Source of the DNA: Escherichia coli
GTDB lineage: Bacteria > Pseudomonadota > Gammaproteobacteria > Enterobacterales > Enterobacteriaceae
DNA: 64,000 bases
NCBI RefSeq assembly: GCF_003334305.1
Contig: NZ_QOWS01000008.1
Strand: one strand, 5' to 3'
Shown one piece after another: positions 15,646 to 44,854 of this stretch. The first letter of the stretch is position 1; each line of letters opens with the position of its first letter. The notes under the pieces are model-generated. The model was not told the DNA's origin and made no database searches. It was given only the letters and a program-made list of their open reading frames with translations. The position numbers and the translations under genes are program-made.

Positions 15646-16884
15646 TTACTCACTGGAAACCAGTCGTGGCGTGATAAACACCACTAACTCGCGTCGTTCA
15701 TCTTCTTTTCCGTCATGACGAAATAATTGCCCGAACCAGGGAATGTCGCCAAGCAACGGCACGCTATCCTGACCCGATTTATTTTTACGGGTAAAAATGC
15801 CGCCCAGCGCCAACGTTTCTCCGCTTTTGACCTCGACCTGCGTTTCGATCTCCTGCTTATCAATCGCCAGCACTTCGCCATCGGCCTGCTGTAGCACCTG
15901 CCCCGGAACGTTCTGGCTGATGTGTAATTTCAGCCGGATGCGACCTTTTTGTAACACCGTGGGCGTGACCTCCATCCCCAGGACGGCCTCTTTAAATTCC
16001 ACCGACGTCGCGCCACTTTCCCCGCTGGAAACCTGATATGGAATTTCGCTCCCCTGTTTAATACTGGCAGGCTGAAGATGTGAGGCCAGCAGACGCGGAC
16101 TGGCGATAATATCCAGTTGCTGTTTTTGTTCGAGCGCGGAAAGCTCAAGATCCAGCAAACGTCCGTTGATGCGCCCAATGTTAAAACCGACATGCGTTGT
16201 CGCCGTCGCTACGGAGAGGTCGCTACCAAGCGTGGTGACTTGCCCAACACCACCAGCGTGTTGCGCATCGGCCAGCGTCCATTTCACGCCTAACTCACGC
16301 AAACTTTTTTCATTAATGGTGACAATATGCGCCGACAGCTCAACCTGCCCGACCGGAAGATCCATTTGCGCTACCCACTGTTCAAGCGCGCTTAACGCCG
16401 TTTTGTTATCTCGTAGCAAAAGGCGATTGGTGCGTTTATCGACGGTCATACTCCCTTTGGCACTCAGTAGCTTCTCCCCCGCTTTCGCCAGTTCTCCCGC
16501 GTCGGCGTATTGCAGGGTTATACTGCGATTTTCCAGCGGCAGATTTGCCTGCGCCCGCGCCTGCTCCGCCTCCTGGCGGGCGATATTGTCATTCTGCCAG
16601 GCAATAGAATGCACTGAGAGAATGTTGCCCTCCTGGCGCGTTATCAGCCCGGCGCTTTTCACTACAGTTTGTAGTGCCTGCTTCCAGGGAACATCTGTTA
16701 GATGTAACGACACCGTACCGCTGACGTCTGGCGACACGACCAGGTTCAACTTCTCCTGTTCAGCCAGCGCCTGCAACACCTGAGCCACCGGAACGTCATC
16801 CACCATCAGCGTCACTTTTTGCGGCTTTGCCGCCTGTACGCCGGGTATCAGCATCAACAGTAGTGCGGCTATCCATTGCTTCAT
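15646..16884 (-). CDS. hofQ: secretin-family outer-membrane protein of the cryptic DNA-uptake/type IV pilus operon
   Basis: 412 aa ORF with signal peptide and secretin-like C-terminus. Confidence 0.85.
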   Translation of the reverse strand: MKQWIAALLLMLIPGVQAAKPQKVTLMVDDVPVAQVLQALAEQEKLNLVVSPDVSGTVSLHLTDVPWKQALQTVVKSAGLITRQEGNILSVHSIAWQNDNIARQEAEQARAQANLPLENRSITLQYADAGELAKAGEKLLSAKGSMTVDKRTNRLLLRDNKTALSALEQWVAQMDLPVGQVELSAHIVTINEKSLRELGVKWTLADAQHAGGVGQVTTLGSDLSVATATTHVGFNIGRINGRLLDLELSALEQKQQLDIIASPRLLASHLQPASIKQGSEIPYQVSSGESGATSVEFKEAVLGMEVTPTVLQKGRIRLKLHISQNVPGQVLQQADGEVLAIDKQEIETQVEVKSGETLALGGIFTRKNKSGQDSVPLLGDIPWFGQLFRHDGKEDERRELVVFITPRLVSSE

Positions 16885-43177: not shown

Positions 43178-43237
<60 letters not shown>

Positions 43238-43361
43238 TGAACATGTGCCAGACGTTGGCACAGCATTGCTTTGGCAAATCCCTCCCTTCGTTTCCCCGCG
43301 ATAATATGACCAACCTCTCATAATTTAAATTTACCCCGCTCTGGTGATTCTCAAACGCCAG

Positions 43362-43377
43362 ATGTTACCCGTATCAT
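43362..43377. promoter_or_regulatory. GntR operator-like site 1 upstream of gntT
   Basis: atgttacccgtatcat; a related copy lies at 43503..43518. Confidence 0.45.
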
Positions 43378-43502
43378 TCACATGGGTACCAAACATACTC
43401 CTGACATCTGACTACAATAATTAGTTTTAGTGGGTATCAGTCGTGGTGCCGCAATATCTCTGTTCCCGATTGGGATAATTAGAGTTTGTCGTCAGAAAAC
43501 TG

Positions 43503-43518
43503 ACGTTACCCATAACAA
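43503..43518. promoter_or_regulatory. GntR operator-like site 2 upstream of gntT
   Basis: acgttacccataacaa; shares the GTTACCC core with site 1. Confidence 0.45.
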
Positions 43519-43537
43519 ATGAAAGGCCAGGTAAATC

Positions 43538-44854
43538 ATGCCATTAGTCATTGTTGCTATCGGTGTAATCTTGTTGTTGCTCCTGATGATCCGCTTCAAA
43601 ATGAACGGCTTCATCGCTCTCGTCCTCGTGGCGCTTGCTGTTGGATTAATGCAAGGAATGCCGCTGGATAAAGTTATTGGCTCCATCAAAGCCGGTGTCG
43701 GCGGGACGCTCGGTAGCCTTGCCCTGATCATGGGTTTTGGCGCAATGCTGGGCAAAATGCTGGCAGACTGCGGTGGCGCACAACGTATCGCCACCACGCT
43801 GATTGCCAAATTTGGTAAAAAACACATCCAGTGGGCGGTGGTACTGACCGGTTTTACCGTTGGTTTTGCCCTGTTCTATGAAGTGGGCTTTGTGCTGATG
43901 CTGCCGCTGGTGTTTACCATCGCGGCTTCTGCGAATATTCCACTGTTGTATGTTGGTGTACCAATGGCAGCTGCACTGTCTGTGACCCACGGCTTCCTGC
44001 CACCGCATCCGGGTCCGACTGCGATTGCCACCATTTTCAATGCCGATATGGGTAAAACCCTGCTGTACGGTACTATTCTGGCAATCCCGACCGTGATTCT
44101 CGCCGGTCCGGTTTACGCTCGCGTGTTGAAAGGTATCGATAAGCCAATTCCGGAAGGTCTCTACAGCGCGAAAACCTTCAGCGAAGAAGAGATGCCGAGC
44201 TTTGGCGTCAGCGTCTGGACTTCTCTGGTGCCGGTTGTGCTGATGGCGATGCGTGCGATTGCCGAAATGATCCTGCCGAAAGGTCACGCTTTCCTGCCGG
44301 TAGCGGAGTTCCTCGGTGACCCGGTAATGGCAACGCTGATTGCCGTGCTGATTGCGATGTTCACCTTTGGTCTGAACCGTGGTCGTTCAATGGATCAGAT
44401 TAACGACACGCTGGTTTCTTCCATCAAAATCATTGCGATGATGCTGTTGATCATCGGTGGTGGCGGTGCGTTCAAGCAGGTGCTGGTAGACAGCGGCGTG
44501 GACAAATACATTGCTTCCATGATGCACGAAACCAACATTTCTCCGCTGCTGATGGCCTGGTCGATTGCTGCCGTACTGCGTATCGCGCTGGGTTCCGCAA
44601 CCGTTGCGGCAATCACTGCGGGTGGTATCGCGGCACCGCTGATTGCAACGACGGGTGTTAGCCCAGAGCTGATGGTTATTGCGGTGGGTTCCGGTAGTGT
44701 GATTTTCTCTCATGTGAACGATCCGGGCTTCTGGCTGTTCAAAGAGTACTTTAACCTGACTATCGGCGAGACCATCAAATCCTGGTCGATGCTGGAAACC
44801 ATTATCTCGGTGTGCGGTCTGGTAGGCTGTCTGCTGCTGAATATGGTGATTTGA
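43538..44854 (+). CDS. gntT: high-affinity gluconate transporter
   Basis: 438 aa ORF, polytopic membrane protein. Confidence 0.9.
   Translation: MPLVIVAIGVILLLLLMIRFKMNGFIALVLVALAVGLMQGMPLDKVIGSIKAGVGGTLGSLALIMGFGAMLGKMLADCGGAQRIATTLIAKFGKKHIQWAVVLTGFTVGFALFYEVGFVLMLPLVFTIAASANIPLLYVGVPMAAALSVTHGFLPPHPGPTAIATIFNADMGKTLLYGTILAIPTVILAGPVYARVLKGIDKPIPEGLYSAKTFSEEEMPSFGVSVWTSLVPVVLMAMRAIAEMILPKGHAFLPVAEFLGDPVMATLIAVLIAMFTFGLNRGRSMDQINDTLVSSIKIIAMMLLIIGGGGAFKQVLVDSGVDKYIASMMHETNISPLLMAWSIAAVLRIALGSATVAAITAGGIAAPLIATTGVSPELMVIAVGSGSVIFSHVNDPGFWLFKEYFNLTIGETIKSWSMLETIISVCGLVGCLLLNMVI

Follow-up and report, generated by a model that had tools for sequence, protein, structure and literature searches.

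We identified the two related sequences upstream of gntT in the window, the 64-kb stretch of Escherichia coli chromosome analyzed here, as the paired operators of the GntR repressor. The best explanation as a whole, to which we assign a probability of roughly 0.9, is that they belong to the gntT promoter-operator region, in which GntR would act at an upstream site (O1) and a downstream site (O2), gluconate would release the repressor, and CRP would activate transcription. GntR here denotes the E. coli LacI/GalR-family protein and not the "GntR family" named after Bacillus subtilis GntR. GntR binding and its release by gluconate come from the work of others, whereas the specificity, positions, and conservation come from the present analysis; the contribution of O2 is one that we infer. 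The identification of paired GntR operators at gntT is already known and is ordinary in itself. That GntR and CRP regulate gntT is textbook knowledge of E. coli, and the main value of this study is confirmation. The modest added value is comparative: the conservation of the operators, an inter-operator spacing without phase lock, and a covarying helix in the 5' leader.

Both sites lie in the nfuA-gntT intergenic region, within the annotated gene order bioH, gntX, nfuA, gntT, and malQ; the gntR gene is located approximately 31 kb outside the window. The 451 bp around both sites are 100% identical to E. coli strain A7, and this stretch is present in 5,425 of 5,426 complete E. coli genomes. Compared with K-12, the intergenic region of the window is approximately 98% identical, and O1 and O2 are both unchanged. 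The features of the region are as follows.

43305-43320, no strand: CRP-cAMP site with the core TATGA-N6-TCTCA, centered at approximately -71.5; differs at 2 positions from TGTGA-N6-TCACA, to which nothing else in the intergenic region is closer

43348-43353, + strand: weak -35 hexamer TTCTCA, from the promoter scan (TTCTCA-18-TATCAT); mean conservation 0.90

43362-43377, no strand: O1, ATGTTACCCGTATCAT, approximately -22 to -7; from the consensus, the weight matrix, the published operator, and conservation

43372-43377, + strand: -10 hexamer TATCAT, inside O1; from the promoter scan and bioRxiv 10.1101/2023.01.10.523462

43384-43537, + strand: inferred 5' untranslated leader of approximately 154 nt, with the start site placed 7 nt after the -10 hexamer

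43503-43518, no strand: O2, ACGTTACCCATAACAA, approximately +120 to +135; from the consensus, the weight matrix, conservation, and the motif TGTTACCCATAACA

43529-43532, + strand: probable Shine-Dalgarno sequence AGGT, read from the sequence; positions 43519-43537 are 87% conserved

43538-44854, + strand: gntT, high-affinity gluconate transporter of 438 aa; from the list of open reading frames, with the annotation of a 100% identical E. coli record

The strings read at the coordinates of O1 and O2 are atgttacccgtatcat and acgttacccataacaa, respectively. The sequence-only reading had reported two related sequences here, and both strings are found exactly where it placed them, with 12 of 16 positions identical. 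The two sites are 141 bp apart from start to start, leaving a gap of 125 bp. O1 begins 176 bp and O2 35 bp upstream of the gntT ATG at 43538, and 19 bp lie between O2 and the start codon. The same reading assigned both sites to the gntT leader, which holds for O2 but not for O1, since O1 overlaps the -10 promoter element in the promoter scan. The scan finds TTCTCA-18-TATCAT at 43348-43377, and O1 therefore contains the -10 hexamer. O1 departs from its palindrome only once (T at position 13), and this change would turn TAACAT into the better -10 hexamer TATCAT. The dual constraint as operator and -10 element plausibly explains the perfect conservation of O1 described below. With a CRP site centered at -71.5 from the inferred start site and the weak -35 hexamer TTCTCA, the region has the features of a class I CRP-activated promoter. 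The TGA(C) and TC.CA half-site cores of the CRP site are invariant in the 31 Enterobacteriaceae sequences aligned. All + and - positions depend on the start site at 43384, which was deduced from the spacing to the -10 hexamer. An abstract by Peekhaus and Conway reportedly places one operator over the -10 element, one at approximately +120, and CRP at -71; the "-10 overlap," "+120," and "-71" positions rest on this abstract and on their internal consistency with the inferred start site.

The assignment to GntR is supported by the specificity of the match. Both sites are 16-bp imperfect palindromes matching ATGTTACC(C/G)GTAACAT. The published GntR consensus, ATGTTACCCGTAACAT (quoted in PMC10450161), is matched with three or fewer mismatches only by O1 (1 mismatch) and O2 (3 mismatches) in the 64-kb window, where 0.34 matches were expected, and this count was reached in none of 100 shuffles. 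The alignment to known GntR sites that had been proposed as a check gave the same answer. A weight matrix was built from five GntR-type sites of E. coli K-12 outside gntT (two of gntKU, before gntK; two of edd; one of idnK-idnD), and it ranks O1 first and O2 second in the window, with 20.3 and 19.4 bits, respectively. A single site is not overwhelming by this measure, because 1 of 20 shuffled windows reached 20.7 bits. However, two such sites 141 bp apart and directly upstream of a gluconate transporter gene are far beyond chance. The third-best matrix match (TTTTTACGGGTAAAAA, 15782-15797, 17.4 bits) is an A/T-flanked palindrome within the coding sequence of hofQ, probably a chance match.

The GTTACCC core is not diagnostic alone. 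It occurs in 13 copies in the window compared with 4.2 expected from dinucleotide shuffles, an approximately threefold over-representation that is probably a codon-usage effect. Together with the comparable single-site score in one of the 20 shuffled windows, this abundance is what favors regarding O1 and O2 as unrelated sequences that resemble each other by chance through a common 7-mer. The other 11 copies, however, have 4-9 mismatches to the full operator, and the match continues over all 16 bp in the two gntT copies alone. Moreover, neither O1 nor O2 varies across genera, in contrast to their flanks, and both are backed by published work. Conservation and literature refute the chance reading, which we consider vanishingly improbable.

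The literature agrees with GntR as the cognate repressor. The exact 16-mer ATGTTACCCGTATCAT has been used as "a 16bp E. coli GntR operator" (bioRxiv 10.1101/2023.01.10.523462); in this preprint, ATGTTACCCGTATCAT is described as bringing TATCAT as the -10 hexamer, with a citation of Peekhaus & Conway 1998. The GntR motif TGTTACCCATAACA, derived from RegulonDB/PRODORIC (PMC2811016), nearly equals O2. According to PMC11661191, the gntT promoter (gntTp) carries a CRP site in addition to two sites bound by GntR, and, as summarized in PMC2230225, binding of GntR to this promoter is inhibited by gluconate and, at higher concentration, by 6-phosphogluconate. The suggestion of the sequence-only reading that paired GntR operators lie upstream of gntT is thus correct and was already in the literature in the form of the published 16-mer, the consensus, the motif, and the description of gntTp. 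GntR operators have also been reused in synthetic gluconate switches (PMC10450161; bioRxiv 10.1101/2023.01.10.523462).

For the comparative analysis, 80 loci encoding GntT relatives were fetched. NfuA or MalQ matches were present in the flanks of 30 loci (both in 24), all of which belong to Enterobacteriaceae or to unclassified MAGs; one of them (L014) is too short upstream, leaving 29. Every one of these 29 retains O1 without change. In 28 of them, O2 keeps its offset of -34/-35 relative to the ATG; in the remaining one, a Pseudocitrobacter MAG, its right half is decayed. In an alignment of 31 Enterobacteriaceae sequences, conservation relative to E. coli is 1.00 for O1 and 0.98 for O2, compared with 0.90 for the -35 hexamer, 0.52 for the leader between the operators, and 0.26 upstream of the CRP site. 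Few non-coding bases of the region are therefore as conserved across Enterobacteriaceae as those of O1 and O2.

Within E. coli, the nfuA-gntT intergenic region is bimodal. An allele approximately 85% identical to that of the window (43178-43540; loci L005, L007, and L008) is carried by 920 of the 5,426 genomes. This allele has the same two 16-mers at the same spacing, but the immediately flanking bases differ, and the NfuA and GntT protein accessions are the same in strains of both intergenic alleles. Inspection by eye shows that the divergent allele has several of its distinctive bases in common with the Escherichia albertii sequence, which points to an old polymorphism or to recombination. 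A third O1-like copy, TGTTACCCGTATCTTTTT, is present exactly 120 bp upstream of O1 in Phytobacter (L025, 1208-1225) and also in two related genomes (L030 and L051); it may reflect local duplication of an operator/promoter segment.

These positions fit the following mechanism of repression. Without gluconate, GntR, a dimeric LacI/GalR-family repressor, binds O1; because O1 covers the -10 hexamer, GntR at this site blocks RNA polymerase. GntR also binds O2, which is transcribed as part of the leader and directly precedes the ribosome-binding site, and would thereby add to repression. Gluconate and, less well, 6-phosphogluconate release GntR, and CRP-cAMP at approximately -71.5 then activates the weak promoter. 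Binding at both operators, exclusion of the polymerase at O1, release by gluconate, and activation by CRP-cAMP were shown by others, and all of the present results are consistent with them.

How O2 would contribute is less evident. The sequence-only reading added that the two operators could loop, and the inter-operator distance without phase lock bears on the unsettled question of GntR looping. Two operators for one repressor 141 bp apart fall within the range of tens to hundreds of base pairs over which such pairs occur, and the spacing is loop-compatible; that part of the suggestion stands, whereas neither helical phasing nor a LacI-type tetramerization extension was found. If repression were cooperative through a loop, GntR dimers on O1 and O2 would touch directly or via a bending protein, with approximately 125 bp looped, as for lac O1/O3 and gal OE/OI. 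Two conserved operators at a loop-compatible distance favor this arrangement, as does the edd promoter with its own pair of GntR-type sites at a spacing of 222 bp. GntR looping has reportedly been proposed in the literature or in EcoCyc, although neither documentation nor published evidence of it was found in the literature searched.

The spacings and the protein sequence provide further evidence on looping. Among 30 orthologous promoters (the window and the 29 loci), the O1-O2 distances are 65, 133, 136, 139, 140, 141, 143, 144, and 147 bp. In most Enterobacteriaceae the distance thus stays between 133 and 147 bp; the only large deletion, of 76 bp in Pseudescherichia, corresponds to approximately seven helical turns and is compatible with phasing. 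However, helical phase is not kept across genera, whose spacings differ by 2-8 bp. A Rayleigh test of the nine distinct spacings, a small sample from related genomes, showed no helical-phase clustering at periods from 10 to 11.3 bp (R 0.07-0.21, p at least 0.66), and the apparent clustering when all 30 promoters are counted is due to shared ancestry. GalR-type loops, which are flexible or assisted by HU, allow larger differences in spacing, and a flexible or protein-assisted loop would still be compatible with these observations. The alignment of E. coli GntR (331 aa) with LacI covers LacI residues 4-316, and GntR stops approximately 14 residues further on; therefore, it has no counterpart of the C-terminal tetramerization helix of LacI. 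In addition, a family survey lists no known homo-tetramerization for the GntR subfamily, although a surface contact of the GalR kind is still conceivable. Cooperative looping in general is therefore possible but rather doubtful, and a rigid phase-dependent loop is mildly disfavored. Compared with a rigid DNA loop as an obligatory step, it is somewhat more likely that O2 acts phase-independently, as an elongation roadblock and/or by raising the local repressor concentration. The constant placement of O2 relative to the ribosome-binding site agrees with such phase-independent action.

An RNA role could also account for a conserved O2. RNAalifold proposes a 5-bp pairing between UUACC (43506-43510) and GGUAA (43530-43534), the latter overlapping the Shine-Dalgarno sequence, so that O2 might be conserved mainly to tune translation, with GntR binding secondary. 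The conservation of the non-consensus positions of O2 themselves and its fixed distance to the ATG would fit this role. However, all paired columns are invariant and thus provide no covariation, the stem is short with a loop of approximately 19 nt, and the GntR motif is matched across both half-sites, which is unneeded for an anti-Shine-Dalgarno function. We therefore regard a predominantly RNA-based role as improbable and retain O2 as a GntR operator.

Comparison with related systems places the gntT arrangement among known operator layouts. The region in the window does not differ from the E. coli gntT promoter-operator region of Porco et al. 1997 and Peekhaus & Conway 1998: the locus, the sequences, O1 at the -10 element, O2 in the leader, and the upstream CRP site are the same. 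E. coli gntKU is controlled by the same repressor through the same 16-bp motif at CAGTTACCCGTAACAT and ATGTTACCGATAACAG (the second is quoted in PMC10450161). However, the gntKU sites overlap with a 13-bp offset, whereas the gntT sites are 141 bp apart. E. coli edd-eda resembles gntT in that its two GntR-type sites are separate, with ATTTTACCGGTAACAT preceding the promoter and TTGTTACGCGTAACAA following it, but these are 222 bp apart and the downstream one is inside the edd coding sequence. In K-12 (L003), the edd sites are at 5578-5593 and 5800-5815, and TTGTTACGCGTAACAA lies 12 nt after the edd start codon.

Among other LacI/GalR-family repressors, lac (O1/O2/O3) and gal (OE/OI) also combine a promoter operator with an auxiliary operator tens to hundreds of base pairs away. 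LacI has a C-terminal tetramerization helix, which GntR lacks, and GalR tetramerizes via a subfamily-specific surface that is unreported for GntR in the family survey; unlike lac and gal, the gntT operators show no phase conservation. Downstream operators of PurR are transcription roadblocks, for example at purB. PurR is likewise a dimeric LacI-family repressor bound well downstream of the start site, although a roadblock at gntT O2, unlike that of PurR, is one that we infer.

Outside Enterobacteriaceae, most loci of GntT relatives have two overlapping operators with a 14-bp offset, such as ATGTTACCGGTATCAT and ATGATACCGGTAACAA (L031-L082; for example L041 at approximately 1339-1368, L065, and L070). 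In Yersinia, Serratia, Dickeya, Rahnella, and others, the gene encoding the GntT relative adjoins gntK and/or gntR. The tandem 14-bp-offset layout was also seen in Pantoea and Erwinia loci, where the neighbors of the gene were not identified, and a few Erwinia-group loci have a single site only. Given these tandem pairs, the split O1/O2 layout appears to be specific to the nfuA-gntT-malQ locus. We tentatively combine the comparative results in a joint proposal, which as a whole is rather unlikely: the split layout would be an Enterobacteriaceae-specific derivative of an ancestral tandem pair, O2 would act without helical phasing and not by looping, serving as a roadblock or as a repressor sink beside the ribosome-binding site, and the previously undescribed, covarying leader helix presented below may stabilize gntT mRNA.

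The leader contains a 7-bp helix pairing 43386-43392 with 43443-43449, which joins the 5' end of the inferred leader to a segment approximately 57 nt downstream. In 20 Enterobacteriaceae leaders, this helix shows compensatory changes: 85% of the cells are paired compared with 73.6% in shuffles (0 of 500), and there are 25 double changes compared with 10.9 in shuffles (0 of 500). Its covariation score is 0.492, compared with at most 0.234 when the helix is slid. The evidence is moderate, since this same alignment had served to derive the structure. The helix may be an mRNA-stabilizing 5' stem. Two genomes, Pseudescherichia vulneris and Escherichia sp. ESNIH1 (L057 and L058), have lost it along with 76 bp of the leader. 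GGGTACC at 43384-43390 was considered as a third GntR half-site and rejected: its sequence conservation is 0.50, it is replaced by GGGCACC in the 85% allele, and it covaries as the 5' arm of the helix.

No Rfam family was found at the leader helix. A riboswitch or known leader RNA was likewise rejected, since Rfam gave only sub-threshold naRNA4/REP matches, which are located upstream of the promoter. These matches correspond to a REP-type palindromic element 3' of nfuA, for which the naRNA4 score of 27.5 bits is below the gathering score of 59.5. The element is followed by a terminator-like hairpin, TGTGCCAGACGTTGGCACA, with a T-rich tail. Together, the REP-type element and the hairpin (43192-43231 and 43244-43262) probably end the nfuA transcript ahead of the gntT promoter.

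A leader hairpin abutting O2 (43488-43505) was rejected because its 5' arm is not conserved. Another small leader hairpin, UUCCC-N4-GGGA(U) at 43463-43478, was seen by eye in the alignment and was not called by RNAalifold. Its pairing is kept with other sequences in Klebsiella (GUUCCG/CGGAAC), Kosakonia (UUUCA/UGAAA), and Enterobacter sp. Bisph1 (UCCCGCG/CGCGGGA).
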